Shown piece by piece: positions 9,604-20,240 of a stretch of 21,403 nt of DNA; within the stretch, counting starts at the first letter, position 1, and every line of letters begins with the position of its first letter. The stretch lies in the UHGV virus genome UHGV-0175150. One strand, 5' to 3'. The notes beneath the pieces are model-generated. The model had not been told where the DNA came from. It saw only the letters and a list, made by a program, of their open reading frames with translations, and did no database searches. The position numbers were made by a program, and so were the translations under genes. Origin of the DNA: a virus.

Positions 9604-11376
9604 ATGACCATCACCACAGACACCACTCTTTTACACGACCCGCGTCGTCAGGCGGCGCTGCTGTACTGGCAGGGGTTTTCCGTGCCGCAGATTGCCGCCA
9701 TGTTGCAGATGAAACGCCCGACGGTGCAGAGCTGGAAACAGCGCGACGGCTGGGACAGCGTTGCCCCCATCAGCCGTGTCGAAATGAGCCTGGAAGCGCG
9801 GCTGACCCAGCTCATCATCAAACCGCAGAAAACCGGCGGTGACTTCAAGGAAATTGACCTGCTGGGACGCCAGATTGAACGACTGGCACGGGTAAACCGC
9901 TACAGCCAGACCGGCAACGAGGCAGACCTTAATCCGAACGTCGCTAACCGCAACAAAGGCGGGCGTCGCAAACCGAAAAAGAATTTTTTCAGTGACGAAG
10001 CCATCGAAAAGCTGGAGCAGATTTTCTTTGAGCAGTCTTTCGACTATCAGTTGCACTGGTATCGCGCCGGGCTTGAGCACCGCATCCGCGATATCCTGAA
10101 ATCCCGCCAGATTGGCGCGACGTTTTATTTTTCCCGCGAGGCACTGCTGCGCGCCCTGAAAACCGGCCATAACCAGATTTTTCTGTCGGCCAGTAAAACG
10201 CAGGCGTATGTGTTCCGTGAATACATCATCGCCTTTGCCCGGCTGGTTGACGTTGACCTGACCGGTGACCCGATTGTCCTGGGCAATAACGGCGCAAAAC
10301 TGATTTTTCTCGGCACCAACTCCAACACCGCGCAGAGCCATAACGGCGACCTGTACGTCGATGAGATTTTCTGGATCCCGAATTTTCAGGTACTGCGTAA
10401 GGTGGCATCAGGTATGGCCTCACAGAGTCACCTGCGTTCGACCTATTTCTCCACCCCGTCCACGCTGGCGCACGACGCCTACCCGTTCTGGTCAGGTGAA
10501 CTGTTCAACCGGGGACGCGCCAGCGCCGCCGAACGCGTGGAAATCGACGTCAGTCATAACGCCCTTGCCGGTGGGCTTCTCTGTGCGGACGGCCAGTGGC
10601 GGCAGATTGTCACCATTGAGGACGCCCTGAAAGGTGGCTGCACGCTGTTCGACATTGAGCAGCTCAAACGTGAAAACAGCGCCGACGATTTTAAAAACCT
10701 GTTCATGTGTGAATTTGTTGACGACAAGGCATCGGTGTTCCCGTTCGAGGAGCTGCAACGCTGCATGGTCGACACGCTGGAAGAATGGGAAGACTATGCG
10801 CCGTTTGCCGCAAATCCGTTCGGCTCCCGCCCGGTATGGATTGGTTACGACCCGTCACACCGTGGCGACAGCGCCGGATGCGTGGTGCTGGCACCGCCGG
10901 TGGTGGCCGGTGGCAAATTCAGAATACTTGAGCGTCACCAGTGGAAAGGCATGGACTTTGCCACTCAGGCTGAATCCATCCGCAAACTCACCGAAAAATA
11001 CAACGTCGAATACATCGGTATTGATGCCACCGGCCTCGGTGTCGGCGTGTTCCAGCTCGTGCGCTCGTTCTATCCCGCCGCGCGCGACATCCGCTACACG
11101 CCGGAAATGAAAACCGCAATGGTGCTCAAGGCAAAAGACGTCATCCGCCGTGGCTGTCTGGAATATGACGTCAGCGCCACCGACATCACCAGCTCGTTTA
11201 TGGCTATCCGCAAGACCATGACCAGCAGCGGACGCAGCGCCACCTATGAGGCCAGCCGCAGCGAGGAAGCCAGCCACGCCGACCTCGCCTGGGCGACCAT
11301 GCACGCCCTGTTAAATGAGCCACTCACCGCCGGTATCAGCACCCCGCTGACATCCACCATTCTGGAGTTTTACTGA
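9604..11376 (+). CDS. P: Terminase large (ATPase) subunit gpP
   Basis: ATG at 9604 preceded by GAGG; 590 aa beginning MTITTDTTLLHDPRRQAALLYWQGF..., matching remembered P2 gpP in sequence and length. Confidence 0.92.
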   Translation: MTITTDTTLLHDPRRQAALLYWQGFSVPQIAAMLQMKRPTVQSWKQRDGWDSVAPISRVEMSLEARLTQLIIKPQKTGGDFKEIDLLGRQIERLARVNRYSQTGNEADLNPNVANRNKGGRRKPKKNFFSDEAIEKLEQIFFEQSFDYQLHWYRAGLEHRIRDILKSRQIGATFYFSREALLRALKTGHNQIFLSASKTQAYVFREYIIAFARLVDVDLTGDPIVLGNNGAKLIFLGTNSNTAQSHNGDLYVDEIFWIPNFQVLRKVASGMASQSHLRSTYFSTPSTLAHDAYPFWSGELFNRGRASAAERVEIDVSHNALAGGLLCADGQWRQIVTIEDALKGGCTLFDIEQLKRENSADDFKNLFMCEFVDDKASVFPFEELQRCMVDTLEEWEDYAPFAANPFGSRPVWIGYDPSHRGDSAGCVVLAPPVVAGGKFRILERHQWKGMDFATQAESIRKLTEKYNVEYIGIDATGLGVGVFQLVRSFYPAARDIRYTPEMKTAMVLKAKDVIRRGCLEYDVSATDITSSFMAIRKTMTSSGRSATYEASRSEEASHADLAWATMHALLNEPLTAGISTPLTSTILEFY

Positions 11377-12410
11377 TGAGCAAGAAAAAAGGGAAAACAC
11401 CGCAACCTGCGGCAAAAAAAATGACCGCCAGCGCCCCGAAAATGGAGGCATTCACCTTTGGTGAGCCGGTGCCGGTACTCGACCGCCGTGACATTCTGGA
11501 TTACGTCGAGTGCATCAGTAACGGCAGATGGTATGAGCCGCCGGTCAGCTTTACCGGTCTGGCGAAAAGCCTGCGTGCTGCCGTGCATCACAGCTCGCCG
11601 ATTTACGTCAAACGCAATATTCTGGCCTCGACATTTATCCCGCATCCGTGGCTTTCCCAGCAGGATTTCAGCCGCTTTGTGCTGGATTTTCTGGTGTTCG
11701 GTAATGCGTTTCTGGAAAAGCGTTACAGCACCACCGGTAAGGTCATCAGACTGGAAACCTCACCGGCAAAATATACCCGCCGTGGTGTGGAAGAGGATGT
11801 TTACTGGTGGGTGCCGTCCTTCAACGAACCGACAGCCTTCACGCCCGGTTCCGTGTTTCACCTGCTGGAGCCGGATATTAATCAGGAGCTGTACGGCCTG
11901 CCGGAATATCTCAGCGCCCTTAACTCTGCCTGGCTGAATGAGTCGGCCACGCTGTTCCGCCGCAAGTATTACGAAAACGGCGCACATGCCGGATACATCA
12001 TGTACGTTACCGATGCCGTGCAGGATCGCAACGATATCGAAATGCTTCGCGAAAACATGGTGAAGTCGAAAGGCCGCAACAACTTTAAAAACCTGTTTCT
12101 CTATGCCCCACAGGGGAAAGCCGACGGCATTAAAATTATCCCGCTCAGTGAAGTGGCGACGAAGGACGATTTTTTTAATATCAAAAAAGCCAGCGCCGCT
12201 GACCTGCTGGACGCACACCGCATCCCCTTTCAGTTGATGGGCGGCAAGCCGGAGAACGTCGGGTCGCTGGGTGATATTGAGAAAGTGGCAAAGGTCTTTG
12301 TCCGCAATGAGCTTATCCCGTTACAGGACAGGATTCGGGAAATAAACGGCTGGCTCGGTCAGGAGGTCATCCGCTTTAAAAACTACTCACTGGACACTGA
12401 CAACGGCTGA
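11376..12410 (+). CDS. Q: Portal protein gpQ
   Basis: 344-aa ORF, same length as P2 gpQ; start overlaps the P stop (TGATG). Confidence 0.92.
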   Translation: MSKKKGKTPQPAAKKMTASAPKMEAFTFGEPVPVLDRRDILDYVECISNGRWYEPPVSFTGLAKSLRAAVHHSSPIYVKRNILASTFIPHPWLSQQDFSRFVLDFLVFGNAFLEKRYSTTGKVIRLETSPAKYTRRGVEEDVYWWVPSFNEPTAFTPGSVFHLLEPDINQELYGLPEYLSALNSAWLNESATLFRRKYYENGAHAGYIMYVTDAVQDRNDIEMLRENMVKSKGRNNFKNLFLYAPQGKADGIKIIPLSEVATKDDFFNIKKASAADLLDAHRIPFQLMGGKPENVGSLGDIEKVAKVFVRNELIPLQDRIREINGWLGQEVIRFKNYSLDTDNG

Positions 12411-12437: not shown

Positions 12438-12578
12438 ACACTCTGTCATCACGCCCTCACACGCTCATCACCGCACAAAAAATCCCGCAGACACACCAAC
12501 CCCCAACGGGCAGACTAAACGCCGTCACGACGCGCTCAGACGCTGAAAAAATAAAATCAGCACCACCGCCAGCGCGCA

Positions 12579-12597
12579 GTGCTTTCCCCGCCTCGCC
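12579..12597. other. cos site (19-nt cohesive end of P2-like phages)
   Basis: GTGCTTTCCCCGCCTCGCC is the reverse complement of GGCGAGGCGGGGAAAGCAC, which I recall as the P2 cohesive end; it lies immediately beyond Q, where cos sits in P2. Confidence 0.55.
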
Positions 12598-12720
12598 CGC
12601 CCGCTTCATGGGGCGGTTTTAATGCAGTTGCACGAACACGCCAGAGGCACACCATCACTGGCAGCGATCAAACACAACAGGGGAGGGATGCGCATGCAAT
12701 TTGATGCTTGTTAATGCGTT

Positions 12721-13383
12721 TTAAAAGTCCATCTCTTTACCATGCATTTCCTTATAATTCTTCCGTATTTCCATTTGCTTTTTATAGCTAATTTTCATAA
12801 TTTCCAAAAGCTCTTTAGGCATCCTTAATTTGTATTGTTTCATTGATGTTTTAACCACAAAGAAACCACTACGAAAACTTGGATTACCATTCTCACTTAA
12901 GCTTTTATAGAACCTCATATTTCCCAGCTTTGCAAAAGGATAGAAGGCAAACTCCCATTTCTCTCCTACTTGGTATAAAGAATACGGCATTTCCTTCCCA
13001 TTTGCTTTTAGTTTGTTTATGTTAAAATGATTATTTACCCCACTAACTTCTAAGCAAAACTCTTGTATATGTACCGGAACGTTCCGCAAATTTACAACCT
13101 CAATATTGGCACAATAATTTTCTTTGTCTACGCTAGGGTAAGGCTTATAGGTTAAACTTAATTTTTCAACATTATTTTGTGATGCTTGGTATGTCGCATA
13201 CAATGAAATAATCACTGCGACTGACGTTGCAATTCCTGAGACCCATCCTCCGATCATTGCTAAATAAGCAACAGCATCTTTATGCTCTGGTTTCGCCCAT
13301 TCAGCCTGAATAGAGCCTAACCATAAACCGAAAGCAAACATACAAATACCAACCAATAAAAAAGAAATTATTTTCCAAAGCAT
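12721..13383 (-). CDS. Hypothetical membrane-anchored protein (two N-terminal TM helices plus ~150-aa soluble domain); AT-rich cargo gene
   Basis: 220-aa ORF with ATG at 13381..13383 and GAGG 8 nt upstream; TM1 about residues 4-23, TM2 about 41-62; composition visibly more AT-rich than the flanking phage genes; no recognisable motif. Confidence 0.7.
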   Translation of the reverse strand: MLWKIISFLLVGICMFAFGLWLGSIQAEWAKPEHKDAVAYLAMIGGWVSGIATSVAVIISLYATYQASQNNVEKLSLTYKPYPSVDKENYCANIEVVNLRNVPVHIQEFCLEVSGVNNHFNINKLKANGKEMPYSLYQVGEKWEFAFYPFAKLGNMRFYKSLSENGNPSFRSGFFVVKTSMKQYKLRMPKELLEIMKISYKKQMEIRKNYKEMHGKEMDF

Positions 13384-13408
13384 TTTATCTGCCTCAAATG
13401 ATTTTAAT

Positions 13409-13477
13409 CTAACGCCTCACGATGCTCTTTGTTTAACCCCGCCAGCACTGAAAACAAGTTTCAGTACTGGCGGCGTT
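13409..13477. repeat. Copy A of a ~69-bp repeat containing an imperfect stem-loop (13435..13477)
   Basis: CTAACGCCTC...CGCCAGCACTGAAA-ACAAG-TTTCAGTACTGGCGGCGTT; about 85% identical to copy B at 14382..14450; lies between the two cargo genes. Confidence 0.7.
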
Positions 13478-13491
13478 TGTCACTATATTGT

Positions 13492-14223
13492 TTAATTGTC
13501 GAGTATCGAATCGACCTCACCCGTTCGCACGTTGACGCGCGCCGCTACGGTCTGCTTTACCACTCCACCATAAGCATTAGTGCCGCGAAACGTGGTTTTC
13601 ACAATAGCGTGCGGGTCTTTATTCAAAACCAAATGATATACCGTTGATACATGTTTATAAGATGAATCATCGTTCATATTCTCTTTAATTAGCTTTTCCA
13701 ATGGTCGATAAGAACCATCCCAACCACTAAAATTACTCTGAAATGTATCAAGGTTGATTTTATTGTTTAGTGATTTCGGATCTTTTTCATAATCATTAAA
13801 GCACCACCCAAGAACATCACCGAGTTTCAACTCATCATCTTTGGTAAAAGTATATTCACTCATGCAAGCATAAAATGCATCTGATGCGGTGACTGGCACT
13901 TCCTTAAAATCAATGTAACTATTCACAATATCGTGTCGAGTTTTCTTTGGCTCGTTCCGATATTCCTTGAGTGTTTTTTCACCATATTCGAATGTTTTTT
14001 GGACTTGGTGTTCTGCAACGGTTGATGTTTCAGTTTTAGCAACTGGCTGGCTTTTTTCTGTTGGATAGAGTATTGAACCAATTATGCTCAATACAAAACC
14101 TCCTCCGAGATAAACCGCACTTGCACGTTTGCGGCTTGGCATTCGCACCAGTGATGGTTTGATTAACCCGATGAAAAAAGCAACGAAAAAAGCGAGTGAT
14201 AGAAAAGCGATTACAGTATCCAT
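13492..14223 (-). CDS. Hypothetical membrane-anchored protein (two N-terminal TM helices plus ~190-aa soluble domain); AT-rich cargo gene
   Basis: Start taken at ATG 14221..14223 (MDTVIAFLSLAFFVAFFIGLI...) with AAGGA 5 nt upstream, giving 243 aa; the track ORF begins 8 codons earlier at a GTG. A strongly basic loop (KPSLVRMPSRKRAS) separates the two TM segments. Body is AT-rich but the last ~120 nt are GC-rich. Confidence 0.7.
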   Translation of the reverse strand: MDTVIAFLSLAFFVAFFIGLIKPSLVRMPSRKRASAVYLGGGFVLSIIGSILYPTEKSQPVAKTETSTVAEHQVQKTFEYGEKTLKEYRNEPKKTRHDIVNSYIDFKEVPVTASDAFYACMSEYTFTKDDELKLGDVLGWCFNDYEKDPKSLNNKINLDTFQSNFSGWDGSYRPLEKLIKENMNDDSSYKHVSTVYHLVLNKDPHAIVKTTFRGTNAYGGVVKQTVAARVNVRTGEVDSILDN

Positions 14224-14381
14224 AGCTATCCTTTTTGCATCATCCACATAAAAAATCGACCTTATGTTAGCAACAGGAAGCTTACTTTTGAATATTTGTA
14301 AGTTGTTAGCTTTAGCTCTCCGAGCTAACTCCTTTCAACCGTCAAAAAACAGCACCAACTCAGTAAAAATATGAATGTCAA

Positions 14382-14450
14382 CTAACGCCTCGCTTCGCTC
14401 GTTGTTCAACGCCGCCAGCCCTGAAAACAAGTTTCACGACTGGCGGCGTT
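14382..14450. repeat. Copy B of the ~69-bp stem-loop repeat
   Basis: CTAACGCCTC...AACGCCGCCAG (perfect 11-bp arm) ...ACAAG... CTGGCGGCGTT; ends 3 nt from the stop of the small ORF at 14453. Confidence 0.7.
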
Positions 14451-14452
14451 CT

Positions 14453-14659
14453 CTATCGTCTGCGTGGTGGTGACGTAACTCTGGATTGACCGATATGGTT
14501 AAACCGCCCGTAATTATCCCGGACTATTTCGGCACACCCGACCAGCTCATCGGGCGTCAGATTTTCGTTGACCATAATCCGCTGTAAACGCTGAACAATA
14601 GCCATCAGCTTGATATTTTTAGTTTTATGGTGCGGTATCTCGCCTGGTATTCTGTGCAT
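14453..14659 (-). CDS. Small hypothetical protein (68 aa), translationally coupled to the upstream ASCH/HExxH gene
   Basis: ATG at 14657..14659 shares 1 nt with the TAA stop of the upstream gene; product MHRIPGEIPHHKTKNIKLMAIVQRL...; no recognisable motif; could be a non-coding overlap. Confidence 0.4.
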   Translation of the reverse strand: MHRIPGEIPHHKTKNIKLMAIVQRLQRIMVNENLTPDELVGCAEIVRDNYGRFNHIGQSRVTSPPRRR

Positions 14660-15111
14660 TATCCAAGCCACCCGTTTTGCTGTGCACGCTCCATCTGTTC
14701 ATCTGAATAGTTCCATGCTCCATCCGTGGCAACCATTGCCCCGCCAGACATCCCCGTCTCTGGTTCATACATAACAGCAAGGCCGAGCTGATGCATAATT
14801 TCATGATTAATTCTGAATACCAGGCCACGCTCACTAAGTTCTTTCCAGTTCACAATCTCATATGCACCTGTATTAAACAGCTCAATACTTAGCAAGACAT
14901 AATCTTCCAGCCAGTCTGACAGGTCAGTAACATCTGTTATCCGGGCTTCAACCTTTCGCCCCGTATACACACCCTGCACCCATTCATGCAAAATCAACGT
15001 GTCCCCGCGCTCATAATTACGGTCATTTTTCCGAAACTCTGCGCGTTTTTTTCCTTCCAGAACAAGGTCAAAATATTTTGCGTGCAGCTTTACCTCGTGA
15101 ATTTTTGCCAT
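14659..15111 (-). CDS. ASCH/DUF3850-like domain protein with a C-terminal HExxH (HEIMH) motif; unknown function
   Basis: ATG at 15109..15111 shares 1 nt with the gpA stop; 150 aa. N-terminal MAKIHEVKLHAKYFDLVLEGKKRAEFRKNDRNYERGDTLILHEW has the signature pattern of DUF3850/ASCH-fold proteins (from memory). C-terminal part has FRINHEIMHQLGLAVMYEPE. Confidence 0.75.
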   Translation of the reverse strand: MAKIHEVKLHAKYFDLVLEGKKRAEFRKNDRNYERGDTLILHEWVQGVYTGRKVEARITDVTDLSDWLEDYVLLSIELFNTGAYEIVNWKELSERGLVFRINHEIMHQLGLAVMYEPETGMSGGAMVATDGAWNYSDEQMERAQQNGWLG

Positions 15112-17396
15112 TATGTCCACTCCATTACTGTTGAGAATCCCGGCCACTCATCAGCGACCGGATACGTGAAGTTTTTCCCGTCATAATTTACGGTTGCCCC
15201 ACGCGCCAGCGCCTCAAGCTCCCATCGCTGCGGCCTGATACCGTTCTGAGCAAGGTCAACGCGGATACGGGTAATTTGCATTCGTTCCGACCGGGTCATT
15301 CTGGCCGATGGCGCCATTTCATGCGGTTTTAACGGGCTTCCGGCTCTTTGCTGACGATTTGGTGTTCTCAGGCCGTGTTTTAATGCGCCCCTGAGCGCCC
15401 TCACGACATCCGGGTCATTCCATTCGATAACACCGTCATCAACCAGATTAAGCACTGCTGCGGCGTGCTCAGAAGGTGTGGGAGCCGGTAACGAAGTATC
15501 ACCACCGGTGAGCTTTCCACAGTTATTGACAGGACTCCGAGGCGCGGCGATGCCGCTTTTTAAAGTCAAAGGCTCAACGACAGGAACTTTCGGAACAATG
15601 CGCCAGTCCGTGGTTCTGGTGATATGAATATGACGCGCGCCGAGATGCGGCGCGTAAATGCCGACCACTCTCTCGACTTCTTCCTCATACTCGTTAACGT
15701 CATCCGACGGGCTACGGGCAACCCTGACAGTCTGACAATCGCGCGGGACATTTGCCCCACCCTGCGCGCTGATATACAACGCAAAATCACCACTGTCTGC
15801 GGCGGCGCGTGCAGCCTCGACGCGTTCGTCAAACTCATCAGCAATGCTGACGCCACGAGGCAATTTGCGTAGTTCACGGTAAGCCCCCATTGTCGGCAGA
15901 CCAACCGTTTTAAATTGCGGGATACGCCACGTTGACGCCCATGCGGTAACAGCCGCTGCAGTGTCTTTCAGCGGCCTGCCGGTATCGTTATCGAGCTGAT
16001 CATCCAGTGCATAGCCGTCGATGTTTTTTGAAATGTATTTCGCGATATATCCCGCTGCACCGCCCCGGTTAAGGTGTTTTGCCTGAAAACGGTTTCGCGC
16101 GGCTCCTCTTTCGTCGCCATCCTCTTTGAGCGCATAGCGACGCATGATTTCGATAATCTGGTTACGCTGGCGTGGATTACAAAAAAGCATCATATGCCAG
16201 TGCGGCGTTCCGTCGTGGTGTGGCTCAACAACACGCAAACCATAAGCCTGTAAATCATTATCCTTGAATGCCGTGCGCATCAGGCTCCAGATACGGCAGA
16301 GATAACGCTGCGCATCCTTTGGATTAAATGCCTCATCATTCCAGCCGTGATTAAGCTTGACGGTTTTACTTTCGCCTTTTCCGACCTGACGTGTCGGGTG
16401 ATACTTTGACGGCGCGGTCAGCGTGATAAACATCCCCACATCACCCTCTGCGGCGGCGTAACGCTCAATTCCGGCGATGGTGTTCATCAGCTCCATCCGG
16501 CGAATTTCAGGATTAGAAATACTGCCCATCACCTTACTGATAAGGTCGATGCGTTCGCCGGTTTCCCTGTTTTCAAGGTCACACGATTTAAGAAATTCCA
16601 GATTTGCCTGGCGGCGCGCACGCACATCACGAATGGCATGTTTACTGGCATAAGGAGAACGGTCTTTATTGACCTCCCCGACAGCAATCAGTAACGCCTC
16701 ATGCCAGCGCATACGCTGGCCTTTAAGCTGATGAGTCCACCACTCATCGTTAAACAGACGGGCAATGGCAGAATATGCCTGCCTCGTGGTCATCTGCCCT
16801 TTACGGTATTTTTTCCAGTAGAGCGGGGAAATATTGAAAGCACGTGCAGCGCCAGCAACATGACCATACAGGTGAGCCTGCGCCTCATCCGTAAACAGCG
16901 ATTCTTTCTCGCCATGCGCATCCACCCAGGCATCGCAGAGTTCCTCATACATCATGAAAAGCTGTGATGAGATACGGGCGGCAAACTTTTTCAGCTCCTT
17001 GTCATTCATCCCCGGCAGGCGCGCATACTGGTCGCGCTCTGCCAGAAACAGCAACGACGCGTCGGTGTTCATTTCATGGCGCTGATTCACACGCTCAATG
17101 CGCGGCCATAAACGACGCTGAAAAGTGGATGTGAGGAAATAAAACCCGTGCACCGGGCTTTTATTGCGCCGGATGTAGTCATAGCGTGAAGTAAACAGCG
17201 AGCGCAAAAAATAAGGCAGGCGGTTAATCGTGGATAAAACACCTTGCACCTGACGCATCTCGTCACGTGTAAGAGGTCTTTCGCGCCCGACAGCCTCGCG
17301 TGGCGCGTTCCATGCATAAGCACCGGTAAACGCCTTACCGGTGCCTGCGGTAAATGCTGACGGAGGGACAAAACGCCCGGAGGCTTTAACGGCCAT
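15111..17396 (-). CDS. A: Replication initiation protein gpA (rolling-circle nickase)
   Basis: Start taken at ATG 17394..17396 (MAVKASGRFVPPSAF...) giving 761 aa, the P2 gpA length; the track ORF begins 14 codons upstream at a TTG. Confidence 0.92.
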   Translation of the reverse strand: MAVKASGRFVPPSAFTAGTGKAFTGAYAWNAPREAVGRERPLTRDEMRQVQGVLSTINRLPYFLRSLFTSRYDYIRRNKSPVHGFYFLTSTFQRRLWPRIERVNQRHEMNTDASLLFLAERDQYARLPGMNDKELKKFAARISSQLFMMYEELCDAWVDAHGEKESLFTDEAQAHLYGHVAGAARAFNISPLYWKKYRKGQMTTRQAYSAIARLFNDEWWTHQLKGQRMRWHEALLIAVGEVNKDRSPYASKHAIRDVRARRQANLEFLKSCDLENRETGERIDLISKVMGSISNPEIRRMELMNTIAGIERYAAAEGDVGMFITLTAPSKYHPTRQVGKGESKTVKLNHGWNDEAFNPKDAQRYLCRIWSLMRTAFKDNDLQAYGLRVVEPHHDGTPHWHMMLFCNPRQRNQIIEIMRRYALKEDGDERGAARNRFQAKHLNRGGAAGYIAKYISKNIDGYALDDQLDNDTGRPLKDTAAAVTAWASTWRIPQFKTVGLPTMGAYRELRKLPRGVSIADEFDERVEAARAAADSGDFALYISAQGGANVPRDCQTVRVARSPSDDVNEYEEEVERVVGIYAPHLGARHIHITRTTDWRIVPKVPVVEPLTLKSGIAAPRSPVNNCGKLTGGDTSLPAPTPSEHAAAVLNLVDDGVIEWNDPDVVRALRGALKHGLRTPNRQQRAGSPLKPHEMAPSARMTRSERMQITRIRVDLAQNGIRPQRWELEALARGATVNYDGKNFTYPVADEWPGFSTVMEWT

Positions 17397-17661: not shown

Positions 17662-17882
17662 GCCATTCTCCGGTAATGTTTGTTTTTTGCTTCAAAGACT
17701 GACTGACAGGAAACACAACGCGTGGCTGACGGATAAGCCGCACGACGGGCAGCAGGTATTGGCGCATCACACTCTTCGCAAACCAGCGCAGAAACACCGC
17801 AATGTTTACCCCTTGCCGCGTTAATCTGGCGCTCCAGTAATTCAGCCTGTTGTTCCTGAATAAAATCTACGTTGTCCGGCAT
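17658..17882 (-). CDS. TraR/DksA-family C4 zinc-finger protein (P2 orf82-like)
   Basis: 74-aa ORF with CEEC-x17-CVSC zinc-finger spacing typical of TraR/DksA C4 fingers; ATGA overlap with the downstream gene. Confidence 0.7.
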   Translation of the reverse strand: MPDNVDFIQEQQAELLERQINAARGKHCGVSALVCEECDAPIPAARRAAYPSATRCVSCQSVFEAKNKHYRRMA

Positions 17883-17884
17883 TA

Positions 17885-18172
17885 TCAGTTCCTTTTGTCG
17901 TTCAGTTTCTTAAATTCATCAGCGCAATAGCTGGCAATTTCAGCCATTAATTTTGTCAGTTCATCCACGGAGGAAATTTGCTTGAGAAATACAGCGCGTT
18001 TCACAAGTAAATTGACCACATCAGACAGGAGGTTTAATTTATCCGCATAAATGGCTATAGTTGATTCCACCATATCCCCAGTATTTTTATCGCGTTTAAT
18101 ATCCGCTAGCGACAAATCACCGTTTTTCATAACTGAAATCTTCAGCCAGTTATTAAGCAATATATTTTTCAT
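17885..18172 (-). CDS. Hypothetical protein, AT-rich, no recognisable motif
   Basis: 95-aa ORF with ATG start; ATGA overlap with the upstream gene stop at 18169..18172; composition more AT-rich than neighbouring P2 core genes. Confidence 0.5.
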   Translation of the reverse strand: MKNILLNNWLKISVMKNGDLSLADIKRDKNTGDMVESTIAIYADKLNLLSDVVNLLVKRAVFLKQISSVDELTKLMAEIASYCADEFKKLNDKRN

Positions 18173-18414
18173 TCGCTGTATGCCCTCTCCGCAGAATCAA
18201 TCATTTCCCGGCCATTATTGGTAATACAGAAACCTTCTCTTGATTTGGTCACAAGTCCCCATTTCCCCATTGCTATAAATGCTTTTTCCACACGGCTAGG
18301 CCAGGAGCGGAAGACATCGCTTGAAGGGTGTAGTGGAGTCTTATCATCTAATTTTTTAAGTAATGAAAGTTGATAATCTGTTAAGCGTTTCCTTAACCAT
18401 TTTGTATTTGTCAT
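18169..18414 (-). CDS. Hypothetical protein, AT-rich, no recognisable motif
   Basis: Start taken at ATG 18412..18414 (MTNTKWLRKRL...) with AGGAAAG 6 nt upstream, giving 81 aa; the track ORF starts 2 codons earlier at a TTG. Confidence 0.5.
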   Translation of the reverse strand: MTNTKWLRKRLTDYQLSLLKKLDDKTPLHPSSDVFRSWPSRVEKAFIAMGKWGLVTKSREGFCITNNGREMIDSAERAYSE

Positions 18415-18428
18415 TTCCAACTTTCCTG

Positions 18429-18641
18429 TTATTTATTAAGTCCTAGATTATGGAATTTGGCTGACTCCTGACTGAGCAACTCGACTATCTCCACGCGGGA
18501 TAACTCCGCCTTTGTGATGTGGCGAATCATGGCATCAAGATGAGACGAAAAGCGCGTTGCTGCGTCAGCCTGTGCTTCGGTTCTGGCCTGTTGCAGCATT
18601 AATGCGTATTTACCGCACTGATTTTCAGAAACTGTATGCAT
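18429..18641 (-). CDS. Small hypothetical early protein
   Basis: 70-aa ORF with ATG start and GGAGAAAG upstream; lies between B and the A-proximal small genes. Confidence 0.5.
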
Positions 18642-18704
18642 GACTTTCTCCAGGAAAAAAGAAGCCCCGCACGATTAAGTGCGTTAAAAACTTTGGTTAA
18701 TTAC

Positions 18705-19205
18705 TTAATGCAGATATTGCTCTGGTTTTACCGACGTCAGAATTGTCGGCGCATACTCAAACAGGCTGAATAATTCACGTAATGCACGAAATAAAGCATC
18801 ACGCCAGTAACATGACTCTTCATTAATTCGCCAGTATGGCTGGTTGAATTCTTTTTCTGTCAGTCGTGCGTGCATAAATAAAGTGCGACGCTGACTGACT
18901 GTTAAAAAACTAATATATGCATACTCACTTGCGCCAACCTGACGGCGTTTTGAGAATGCCCCACGCAATTCATCAATTGCACAAACCAGCCGTTCACGTT
19001 CGACGTCGTTCATTTCTTCAAAACGCATCGTTGCGTGACGCTGTTTTAACTGCGCATGAAAGCAAACTGTTAGCCGTTCGCGCTCCATCATCTGATTATA
19101 ATAATCACATGTATCCTGCCAGCGAGGAACGGCAAGATGCTTACCAATTATCCGGCGCATAGTTGCTGGCTGTTTTTCAACGAGATTGAGCGTCATCACT
19201 GTCAT
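18705..19205 (-). CDS. B: Replication protein gpB
   Basis: Start taken at ATG 19203..19205 (MTVMTLNLVEKQPA...), with GGAGGG about 8 nt upstream, giving 166 aa, the P2 gpB length; the track ORF begins 2 codons earlier. Confidence 0.75.
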   Translation of the reverse strand: MTVMTLNLVEKQPATMRRIIGKHLAVPRWQDTCDYYNQMMERERLTVCFHAQLKQRHATMRFEEMNDVERERLVCAIDELRGAFSKRRQVGASEYAYISFLTVSQRRTLFMHARLTEKEFNQPYWRINEESCYWRDALFRALRELFSLFEYAPTILTSVKPEQYLH

Positions 19206-19438
19206 TTCCATACCCTCCGGCTTTTCAGAAAGGTCAGAGCCTTCTTTAATGGACTCTGTTTTTTGGTGCGGATAATGATTCCTTTGCGACCCTTCCCGTG
19301 GGTGATGGTGAAGTCAATCGCCCTGGGGCTTTCGTTACGCAATAACTGAGCAATACAACGCGGCTCATTCATCCTTTCCACCTTAAGCCGCACGGCCATG
19401 TCTTGATTTGCTGTAACTAATGCGATTTTTCCAGTCAT
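19202..19438 (-). CDS. Small hypothetical early protein (P2 orf78-like)
   Basis: 78-aa basic ORF with ATG start between cox and B; overlaps both neighbours. Confidence 0.5.
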   Translation of the reverse strand: MTGKIALVTANQDMAVRLKVERMNEPRCIAQLLRNESPRAIDFTITHGKGRKGIIIRTKKQSPLKKALTFLKSRRVWK

Positions 19439-19754
19439 GCCACTCGGTCGGAGCCTCTTCGACTAGTTGTGCCGCATACTTATCCCACTCACGACGATTT
19501 ACCCATAATTCAGCTTTCCCTCTTGGTTTTAATGGGTCTGTCATATAGAAGGCTGGCAGCTTTCCCGCTTTAGCCATTTCAGCCACCGCGCGTGGTGTCT
19601 TACCGATGTAAAGAGCAAACCCCTCTTTCGACAGCAAATCTGATGGGCGCTCTGAAATCTGAATGCTTTTGCGTTTGGCTTCGTTTTCGAAACTTGCCTC
19701 ATCGCTAGTTTGACAAGAAATTTCTACATTTGTCGTCACTTTGCTATCCTCCAT
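19383..19754 (-). CDS. cox: Cox-like excisionase/transcriptional regulator with an N-terminal extension
   Basis: Segment FALYIGKTPRAVAEMAKAGKLPAFYMTDP aligns with the remembered P2 Cox helix-turn-helix region (FAKLIGKSTGAVRRMIDKGKLPVIDMTDP); first gene of the early operon, divergent from C. ORF is 123 aa against 91 aa in P2; start codon uncertain. Confidence 0.65.
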   Translation of the reverse strand: MEDSKVTTNVEISCQTSDEASFENEAKRKSIQISERPSDLLSKEGFALYIGKTPRAVAEMAKAGKLPAFYMTDPLKPRGKAELWVNRREWDKYAAQLVEEAPTEWHDWKNRISYSKSRHGRAA

Positions 19755-19847
19755 AAGATTTGTAATTCACCAACTGGAGCCATCTAGAGCCTTTTTGAGT
19801 GCATCGCAAATTGCCAAGTAGCCATATAATTGGAGATTAGCAAAATT
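19755..19847. promoter_or_regulatory. Immunity switch region between cox and C with overlapping promoter elements
   Basis: Perfect TATAAT at 19825..19830 on the plus strand (candidate Pc -10). On the minus strand a perfect TTGACA (complement of 19850..19855, overlapping the C start codon) lies 17 nt upstream of AATTAT (candidate Pe). Imperfect direct repeats AGTAGCCAT and ATTAGCAAA flank the -10, about 20 bp apart. Confidence 0.45.
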
Positions 19848-20147
19848 ATGTCAAGTGAACAAAGCGAGAAATTAAAGCTCATCCGTGAATCCGAACGCCT
19901 TAAAACTAAGGAAATTGCTGAATTAATTGGAATTAATTACTACACATATCATGGATATGAATCAGGGAAATCAAAAATGCCTATGGAAGCAGGTATGAAG
20001 CTGTTTAAGCATCCACGCTTTCGCAAGTATCGTGACTGGTTCATGTTTGATGAAATAGATCCCGAAGCTGGACAAATAGCCCCAGCTCTCGCACACATTG
20101 GGCAAGACTCAACAACCTTGCACCACTCAGACCAAAAGACTGGCTGA
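19848..20147 (+). CDS. C: Immunity repressor C
   Basis: Start taken at ATG 19848 giving 99 aa, the P2 C length; C-terminal QIAPALAHIGQDSTTLHHSDQKTG matches the remembered P2 C terminus (QIAPALAHFGQ...SGQKTG); the track ORF starts at an upstream TTG. Confidence 0.85.
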   Translation: MSSEQSEKLKLIRESERLKTKEIAELIGINYYTYHGYESGKSKMPMEAGMKLFKHPRFRKYRDWFMFDEIDPEAGQIAPALAHIGQDSTTLHHSDQKTG

Positions 20148-20240
20148 CGATTTATTCAGCATATGTGTGCAGTAAATGTACGAAAGAAAATTGCATTAAT
20201 TTTCAAGTAGTAGAAGTAAACAGCGTCATCGGAGGGCTTT

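Follow-up and report, generated by a model that had tools for sequence, protein, structure and literature searches.

The viral genome UHGV-0175150 (21,403 nucleotides, the whole of which is called the window here) has exactly the sequence of a P2-like prophage carried by the Escherichia coli SCAID URN1-2021 chromosome (NZ_CP082824.1). We analysed the interval between the cohesive end site (cos) and replication gene A of this phage. It holds four co-directional open reading frames (ORFs) on the minus strand, which encode proteins of 220, 243, 68 and 150 amino acids (aa), and this layout agrees with the way RefSeq annotates the identical locus in that strain. An earlier sequence-only reading had described these ORFs, with the same lengths, as four non-P2 genes in the slot that P2 uses for old and tin, and had proposed them as one undescribed defence or exclusion module. 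The four ORFs and their lengths were confirmed, and so was the slot, which is the gpA–portal hotspot beside cos. According to the homologies described below, however, the locus is made up of two backbone genes, a homologue of a gene that already has both a name and a reported exclusion phenotype, and a member of a catalogued family of 220-aa proteins. Comparison loci of this analysis are numbered L001–L033, where L004 is P2, L006 is Wphi, L028 is the EBJ003-type prophage and L030 is the prophage of E. coli bR_120_Kylling.

The GC content of the window between about 12600 and 14400 is 0.34–0.41, compared with 0.52–0.60 in the flanks. Calculated per gene, the values were 0.345 for the 220-aa gene, 0.398 for the 243-aa gene, 0.478 for the 68-aa ORF, 0.459 for the 150-aa gene and 0.536 for gpA. 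Strong AT-richness is thus limited to the two genes encoding the 220-aa and 243-aa proteins; the contrast with a GC-rich backbone, from which recent acquisition had been concluded, is real for the region but marks only these two as cargo. Both proteins possess two N-terminal hydrophobic helices, which agrees with their earlier description as membrane-anchored. On the cos side, the P2 right end including cosR matches window positions 12579–12626 at 98%, and the homology of P2, Wphi, P24A7b, EBJ003-type and other loci with the window ends at 12626–12640. The real variable cargo corresponds to about 12633–14379. All features are listed in Table 1.

Table 1. Features of the cos–gene A interval and its flanks (positions in the window)
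Feature	Position	Strand	Basis
Terminase gene	9604-11376	+	ORF list and RefSeq
Portal gene Q, conserved flank of the hotspot on the cos side	11376-12410	+	Named 'phage portal protein' by RefSeq at the identical E. coli locus
Terminator-like hairpin with T-run just beyond cos	12560-12575	-	Consensus scan only; position comparable to 186 t95b
cos cohesive end, 19 nucleotides, GGCGAGGCGGGGAAAGCAC on the minus strand	12579-12597		Match to P2 cosR
Conserved cos-flanking sequence; cos-side (distal) edge of the variable region at ~12632	12598-12632		Homology end points
Cassette 2, 220-aa protein, WP_175091281, phrog_16957	12721-13383	-	ORF and RefSeq
Hairpin element copy 2, junction of orf97 homologue and 220-aa gene	13394-13484	-	Repeat pair, nhmmer over loci, RNA fold
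Cassette 1, 243-aa 186 Orf97 homologue, WP_175091280, phrog_3403	13492-14223	-	ORF and RefSeq; ORF reaches a GTG at 14247
Hairpin element copy 1, directly 3' of the 68-aa ORF; proximal edge of the variable region	14367-14452	-	Repeat pair, nhmmer, RNA fold
68-aa ORF, phrog_11386, backbone gene of the P2-like sublineage	14453-14659	-	Amino acid identity and genome counts
150-aa full-length orf91 homologue (DUF3850/ASCH and DUF7415), backbone	14659-15111	-	Pfam and P2 comparison
Replication gene A, conserved flank opposite cos	15111-17396	-	RefSeq 'replication endonuclease'; 97% identical to P2 gpA

The 243-aa protein was aligned by BLASTP with Orf97 of coliphage 186 (AAC34191.1) over its full length and without gaps, with 196 of the 243 residues identical (81%, E 1e-155). 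Judged by this alignment, cassette 1 is an orthologue-grade homologue of 186 Orf97. It also matches phrog_3403 at E 3.6e-145, which the PHROGs database places in the category 'unknown function'. The statement that neither membrane protein belongs to a recognisable family thus did not hold for the 243-aa protein, whereas it stood for the 220-aa protein insofar as Pfam, NCBIfam and PADLOC hold no model for it. The GenBank record of phage 186 carries the note 'expression from plasmid blocks 186 infection' for orf97. According to the same record, orf97 is the last gene before cos and belongs to the p95 operon, which is under LexA control and in which it follows the antirepressor gene tum; for the p95 (tum–orf97) operon Brumby et al. 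(1996) are cited in PMC5322425. The copies in the window and in 186 have the same length and the same site between the replication gene and cos, and both are followed by the same hairpin element. They differ in their surroundings: the window homologue follows orf91 and the 68-aa ORF, without tum, the p95 promoter or a LexA box, and a further cassette comes after it. No Tum homologue was found at the window locus and no LexA box in the cargo region, so SOS control as in 186 is unsupported here. The LexA/tum SOS operon is a regulatory context and not a property of the Orf97 protein.

Orf97 homologues form a family of 158 clusters at 90% identity that occurs throughout the Enterobacterales. They were found in 33 phage records, including P2/186-like phages of Yersinia, Salmonella, Erwinia and Klebsiella, and more distant relatives are present in Vibrio phage VHML. 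Among complete E. coli genomes, 88 of 5426 carry an orf97 homologue. In 14 genome loci from different species, the gene is situated between gpA (or gpA and tum) and the portal gene wherever the flanks were recognisable.

The AlphaFold model of the 243-aa protein has a mean predicted local distance difference test (pLDDT) score of 84, with values above 90 for most of residues 80–240. It shows helices at residues 2–21 and 31–52, a disordered linker (56–74), a helical subdomain (85–162) and a helix with a four-stranded sheet (173–241). In the family, the loop between the two hydrophobic helices contains on average 4.7 lysine plus arginine residues and almost no acidic ones, and the N-terminus lacks positive charge. 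By the positive-inside rule, the C-terminal domain is therefore predicted to be periplasmic. Cysteines 120 and 141 are invariant in an alignment of 45 sequences and lie on neighbouring helices of the model, an arrangement that would fit a periplasmic disulfide, and the best fold matches of the model are periplasmic HdeA/HdeB and VirB8-like domains. From the model and the charge distribution, the Orf97 homologue is predicted to consist of a two-helix inner-membrane anchor and a periplasmic domain. Met28 (codon ~14140–14142), part of the positively charged loop and immediately ahead of hydrophobic helix 2, is invariant in the 45 members as well. A putative internal start at this codon would yield a one-helix signal-anchor form with an unchanged periplasmic domain; tum, the neighbour of orf97 in 186, is annotated with several nested starts.

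The 220-aa protein matched only phrog_16957 in PHROGs, again of 'unknown function'. Its model (pLDDT 81) shows a transmembrane hairpin formed by residues 2–28 and 32–70, an immunoglobulin-like (Ig-like) beta-sandwich (75–187) and a C-terminal helix (190–214). The close family comprises 22 clusters at 90% identity, and a profile search of 1.84 billion representatives extended it to a superfamily of only 48 clusters at 50% identity, nearly all of them 200–230 aa in length. Conservation within this superfamily is centred on transmembrane helix 2, where the motif M-x-G-G-W-V-S-G-x-A-T includes an invariant W47 and the sequence GGWVSG forms a GxxxG-like motif; the soluble domain is highly variable. 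N-termini in the family are positively charged and the loop is mildly acidic, a charge bias opposite to that of Orf97, which points to a cytoplasmic domain. This weak bias suggests that both ends of the protein face the cytoplasm (N-in/C-in), with the Ig-like domain probably located there. A relationship between the Orf97 and 220-aa families was considered and rejected, as the profile–profile comparison gave a probability of 6%.

In phages and prophages, the 220-family gene always comes last, next to cos and the portal gene, and has the orientation of gpA. The allele of the window is present in 4 of the 5426 genomes, and 46 carry one or another of four alleles. In 9W, P24A7b, S164, P22H4 and BIS20, orf97 is followed by the gene for a distant relative with 26–39% identity, and the common EBJ003-type E. 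coli prophages carry a relative of 218 aa that is 33% identical and matches the family profile at E 3.4e-38. Overall, 220-family alleles are 26–73% identical while the adjoining copies of Orf97 stay 94–97% identical. Family members without Orf97 occupy the same site next to cos in a Kosakonia prophage, at a further locus behind tum, and in another P2-like prophage (loci L023, L024 and L033). In the Kosakonia P2-like prophage (L023, 5945–7330), the hotspot holds an ApeA-NTD/HEPN gene beside the 220-family gene. Outside any recognisable phage, a very distant member lies near patatin, MarR and umuDC-like genes in marine metagenome sequence (contigs L031 and L032).

The two remaining genes of the interval are the 150-aa gene and the 68-aa ORF. 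The 150-aa gene abuts gpA, and its product is ~97% identical to P2 Orf91 up to residue ~74, that is, over the first ~49% of the protein. In Pfam it matches DUF3850 (PF12961, E 7.8e-18), ASCH (PF04266, E 1.2e-10) and DUF7415, in agreement with its earlier description as an ASCH/DUF3850-like protein with an HExxH motif. Read from the sequence, this motif is HEIMH at residues 103–107, in the C-terminal DUF7415 part. A homology search with this C-terminal part of orf91 returned close relatives only, and we do not read HEIMH as a metalloprotease site. The DUF3850/ASCH domain and the gene position directly downstream of gene A are common to the window copy and P2, but the annotated P2 Orf91 has only 109 aa (L004, 3317–3646) and lacks DUF7415 and HEIMH. 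DNA homology to canonical P2 extends from gpA down to position 14891, inside orf91, is then lost, and is regained at ~12632 beside cos. P2 orf91 is thus shortened by the tin–old insertion, whose left junction corresponds to the break at residue ~74. In Wphi, gp91 and gp92 (L006, 3662–4177) are two annotated pieces of one orf91.

Both orf91 and the 68-aa ORF are 92–98% identical in Wphi, a P2 isolate, 9W, P24A7b and Yersinia P2-like phages; for the 68-aa ORF, the amino acid identity is 94–96% in the 9W, EBJ003-type and Kylling loci. The two genes occur together in 391 of the 5426 genomes. As they are conserved across P2-like relatives, they are not acquired cargo, and on the evidence of these comparisons they are the tail of the P2-family early operon, which closes with a conserved hairpin element. 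Thus, two of the four supposed non-P2 genes turned out to be conserved genes of the P2 family; the earlier reading had listed orf91 among the P2 genes of this slot without identifying the 150-aa gene as its counterpart. The two membrane genes are not.

The hairpin element is ~80 nucleotides in length and its two copies in the window are 83% identical. It contains a hairpin with 19-bp arms, for which folding energies of −36.6 kcal/mol (copy at 13394–13484, z −5.1) and −38.8 kcal/mol were calculated on the transcribed strand, with z about −5 to −6, compared with −26 and −27 kcal/mol on the opposite strand. Owing to G–U pairs, the transcribed strand gives by far the more stable hairpin. Across 17 copies, 92% of the hairpin cells are paired and four pairs are changed on both sides in a compensatory manner. 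The element follows orf97 also in 186, and 64 P2/186-like phage records carry it. In the comparison loci it was detected by nhmmer once per locus, directly after the last conserved operon gene (L002–L012, L014, L021, L023–L027). No match for it was found in Rfam, and the hairpin is not followed by a U-run.

Hairpin copy 1 contains the point, 14380, at which the homology of the window with Wphi-type phages and a P2 isolate stops, and hairpin copy 2 the corresponding point for EBJ003-type prophages, 13409; in both cases the homology resumes at ~12632. A Salmonella 186-like phage shares with the window the whole block of portal gene, cos, 220-aa gene, hairpin and orf97 at 77% nucleotide identity. 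According to these end points, recombination junctions coincide with the hairpin element. The two copies are thus the footprint of an orf97 cassette with 186-like ancestry that was joined to a P2-type early operon. The element could serve as a homology anchor for cassette swapping, as a hairpin for mRNA 3'-end formation or processing, or as both. In E. coli bR_120_Kylling (L030, 2177–3405), an IS3-family element is located between the 68-aa ORF and the orf97 homologue, near the hairpin element. This insertion parts both cassettes from the early operon, so that their expression in this prophage, if kept, would need a promoter of its own.

Rousset et al. (2022; PMC9122126) described the gpA–gpQ region beside cos as a hotspot with 1,650 arrangements in 18,150 E. 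coli loci, from which 169 systems were curated, and a 2024 preprint counts the gpA–portal region among the best-studied phage hotspots. In their Table S5A, the arrangement 'DUF3850/ASCH + hypothetical + hypothetical + hypothetical' is listed, and we traced its accessions to an E. coli prophage that is organised like the window. Table S5B contains the EBJ003-type allele of the 220-aa family as system 30, a protein of 218 aa that occurs 119 times, is assigned no domain and bears the comment '2 TM'; the L028 allele is nearly identical to the sequence given there. The sequence relationships described above make the 220-aa protein of the window a distant allele of the superfamily that holds system 30. 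System 30 was not found among the cloned systems in the parts of Table S2 that could be checked, nor were the two membrane proteins of the window found among the systems cloned in that study, to the same extent. A defence role of the 220-aa family is plausible.

These comparisons altered the sequence-only reading in several respects. The proposed module is not undescribed, since the Orf97 family has been named since the annotation of 186, a 220-family allele is system 30 and the hotspot has been well studied. Nor is it one four-gene unit, because two genes are backbone and the two cassettes occur independently. What the comparison across P2-like phages did bear out is the variability of the site: the two AT-rich genes vary between otherwise nearly identical phages, in which orf91 and the 68-aa ORF are conserved. 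The resemblance to exclusion or abortive-infection proteins has a precedent for the 243-aa protein in the annotation of 186 Orf97 and none for the 220-aa family.

The P2 old/tin hotspot is this same gpA–Q slot directly beside cos and likewise holds variable AT-rich cargo. The P2 old and tin genes, however, encode soluble nuclease/ATPase-type proteins and are transcribed from their own promoter towards gene A, whereas the cargo of the window consists of two membrane proteins transcribed away from gene A. Functional parallels are provided by T4 Imm and Sp, P22 SieA, HK97 gp15 and P1 Sim, small phage proteins of the inner membrane, some of them with a periplasmic domain, which halt incoming DNA once the phage has adsorbed. 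Both the architecture of the window proteins and the phenotype noted for 186 would fit this group by functional analogy only, as a relationship in sequence or in Pfam does not exist. In known systems, such as those discussed by Rousset et al. (2022; PMC9122126), transmembrane proteins are considered to be suicide effectors. Like membrane-anchored abortive-infection effectors, members of the 220-aa family are small, have a conserved transmembrane hairpin and reside in a defence hotspot; they differ in that they stand alone, without an enzymatic or sensor partner, and in that their soluble part is a plain Ig-like sandwich.

We favour, with somewhat better than even confidence, the explanation that the interval is a composite in which the tail of the early operon is followed by two independent, horizontally exchanged single-gene cassettes in the old/tin hotspot, and that these cassettes act as exclusion or abortive-infection determinants. 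The anatomy, the homologies, the variability and the junctions are shown by the comparisons above, and the topologies, the two mechanisms and the timing of expression are inferred. Orf97 would be held in the inner membrane by its two-helix anchor with the conserved domain facing the periplasm, and it would exclude P2/186-type phages after adsorption, most likely at the entry of DNA across the periplasm and inner membrane. We infer this block of entry from the note on 186, the predicted topology and the analogy with T4 Imm/Sp, P22 SieA, HK97 gp15 and P1 Sim. The protein would be made when the early operon is transcribed, and possibly at a low level in the lysogen. The 220-aa protein may be a second, independent determinant of exclusion or abortive infection, whose variable Ig-like domain would recognize a phage component while the conserved hairpin acts in the membrane.

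Several observations weigh against this explanation. No phenotype is known for the window locus or for any member of the 220-aa family, and the topology proposed for this family is based on a weak charge bias. For 186 Orf97, the phenotype rests on a one-line GenBank note and the citation in PMC5322425, and it was obtained by expression from a plasmid, so that toxicity or an indirect envelope effect is possible. Scans of the four window proteins and of 31 and 45 family members with Pfam, NCBIfam and PADLOC revealed no significant model for either membrane protein. Against PADLOC-DB v2, the best scores were E 0.097 (KwaA) and E 0.025, and E ≤ 0.01 was reached by none of the 31 220-family members and by one of the 45 members of the Orf97 family (E 0.0043). 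Profile searches of PDB sequences likewise gave nothing significant. Furthermore, both cassettes are co-directional with the early operon, unlike P2 old and tin, which have their own promoter. A promoter scan of the cargo region yielded weak consensus matches only, none of them convincing, and no LexA box. As neither was found, expression in the lysogen is unproven. The hairpin with T-run just beyond cos may terminate the transcription unit that holds both cassettes. On the far side of gene A, upstream of it, a second AT-rich stretch (GC content 0.39–0.45, window 17800–20200) contains several small minus-strand ORFs, among them ORFs for DUF5405-type proteins, and could represent a further variable segment of the early region.

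The same co-directionality would also fit a role of the membrane genes in the lytic programme of the phage itself instead of in the protection of the lysogen, for example by closing the envelope to further injection after the onset of induction or infection, in the manner of T4 Imm and Sp, or by tuning induction or lysis. They have the orientation of gpA, orf91 and the 68-aa ORF and lack a strong promoter of their own, the homologue in 186 belongs to the LexA-controlled tum–orf97 SOS operon that is switched on at induction, and tum is the most expressed transcript of prophage BTP5 under stress. Yet the membrane genes are missing from most P2-like phages (88 genomes for orf97 and 4–46 for the 220-family, against 391 for the backbone pair among the 5426), which shows that they are dispensable, and they resemble hotspot cargo in where they lie, in AT-richness and in the turnover of their alleles. 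We consider this alternative unlikely; it also overlaps with the preferred explanation, as exclusion during lytic growth would still be exclusion. A closer tie between the two cassettes, in which Orf97 is the periplasmic sensor and the 220-aa protein the membrane effector or specificity subunit of one two-gene system, would account for their adjacent and co-directional arrangement in the window and in several E. coli phages and prophages (L002, L005, L028, L030), as well as for the orf97–hairpin–220–cos block common to the Salmonella 186-like phage at 77% nucleotide identity. The count of at least 46 genomes with one of the four 220-family alleles, against 88 with an orf97 homologue, also speaks for it. 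The two genes were found together in L001, L002, L005, L025, L028 and L030. However, Orf97 occurs alone in phage 186, where it is annotated as sufficient for blocking infection, and in the 186-like prophages L009–L011 and L021; the 220-family occurs without it in L023, L024 and L033; and in the E. coli prophage L029, orf97 is followed by a gene for an unrelated soluble protein of 224 aa. Moreover, 220-family alleles are swapped beside a nearly invariant Orf97, with a recombination junction between the genes. An obligate two-gene system was rejected, as each gene is found without the other, and any functional pairing of this kind appears improbable to us. Since each occurs without the other, the two genes are independent cassettes that are often neighbours.

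Functions unrelated to phages were considered as well. The membrane genes might be lysogenic-conversion genes, acting in envelope stress or host interaction, or passengers without function. The HdeA-like periplasmic subdomain of the Orf97 homologue is suggestive in this respect, the hotspot is known to hold non-defence cargo such as partition systems and a cytolethal distending toxin (PMC9122126), and one distant member of the 220-family is found in a chromosomal setting that is not that of a phage. These points are opposed by the phage-blocking phenotype in the annotation of 186, and the fact that both families are intact, length-conserved and widely maintained argues against junk, which makes this possibility a very improbable one.

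Within the preferred explanation of independent exclusion cassettes, a stronger reading can be put forward, though only tentatively. The 220-aa family could represent a new class of stand-alone, membrane-tethered phage-resistance protein, in which a hypervariable Ig-like domain serves for the recognition of phage components and a conserved GxxxG-type transmembrane hairpin executes exclusion or cell suicide. P2-like and 186-like phages would exchange these alleles, as well as the Orf97 cassette, by means of the conserved ~80-nucleotide RNA hairpin, an element dedicated to this purpose that would stand at each cassette junction in the hotspot.

The gpA–Q hotspot has already proved to be a source of anti-phage systems, and the evolutionary pattern of the 220-aa family makes it a reasonable candidate for experiments. 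A specificity determinant in conflicts between phages would be expected to show just such a turnover of alleles next to a neighbour that hardly varies. The junction hairpin may help to explain cassette swapping at the hotspot, a question that was left open by a 2026 NAR study. Furthermore, an old and almost forgotten observation on 186 Orf97 is now tied to a family that extends across the P2/186-like prophages of Enterobacterales, and its mechanism is cheaply testable. If either protein blocks the entry of DNA, it would offer a way into the passage of P2-type phages across the inner membrane, a step that is poorly understood.

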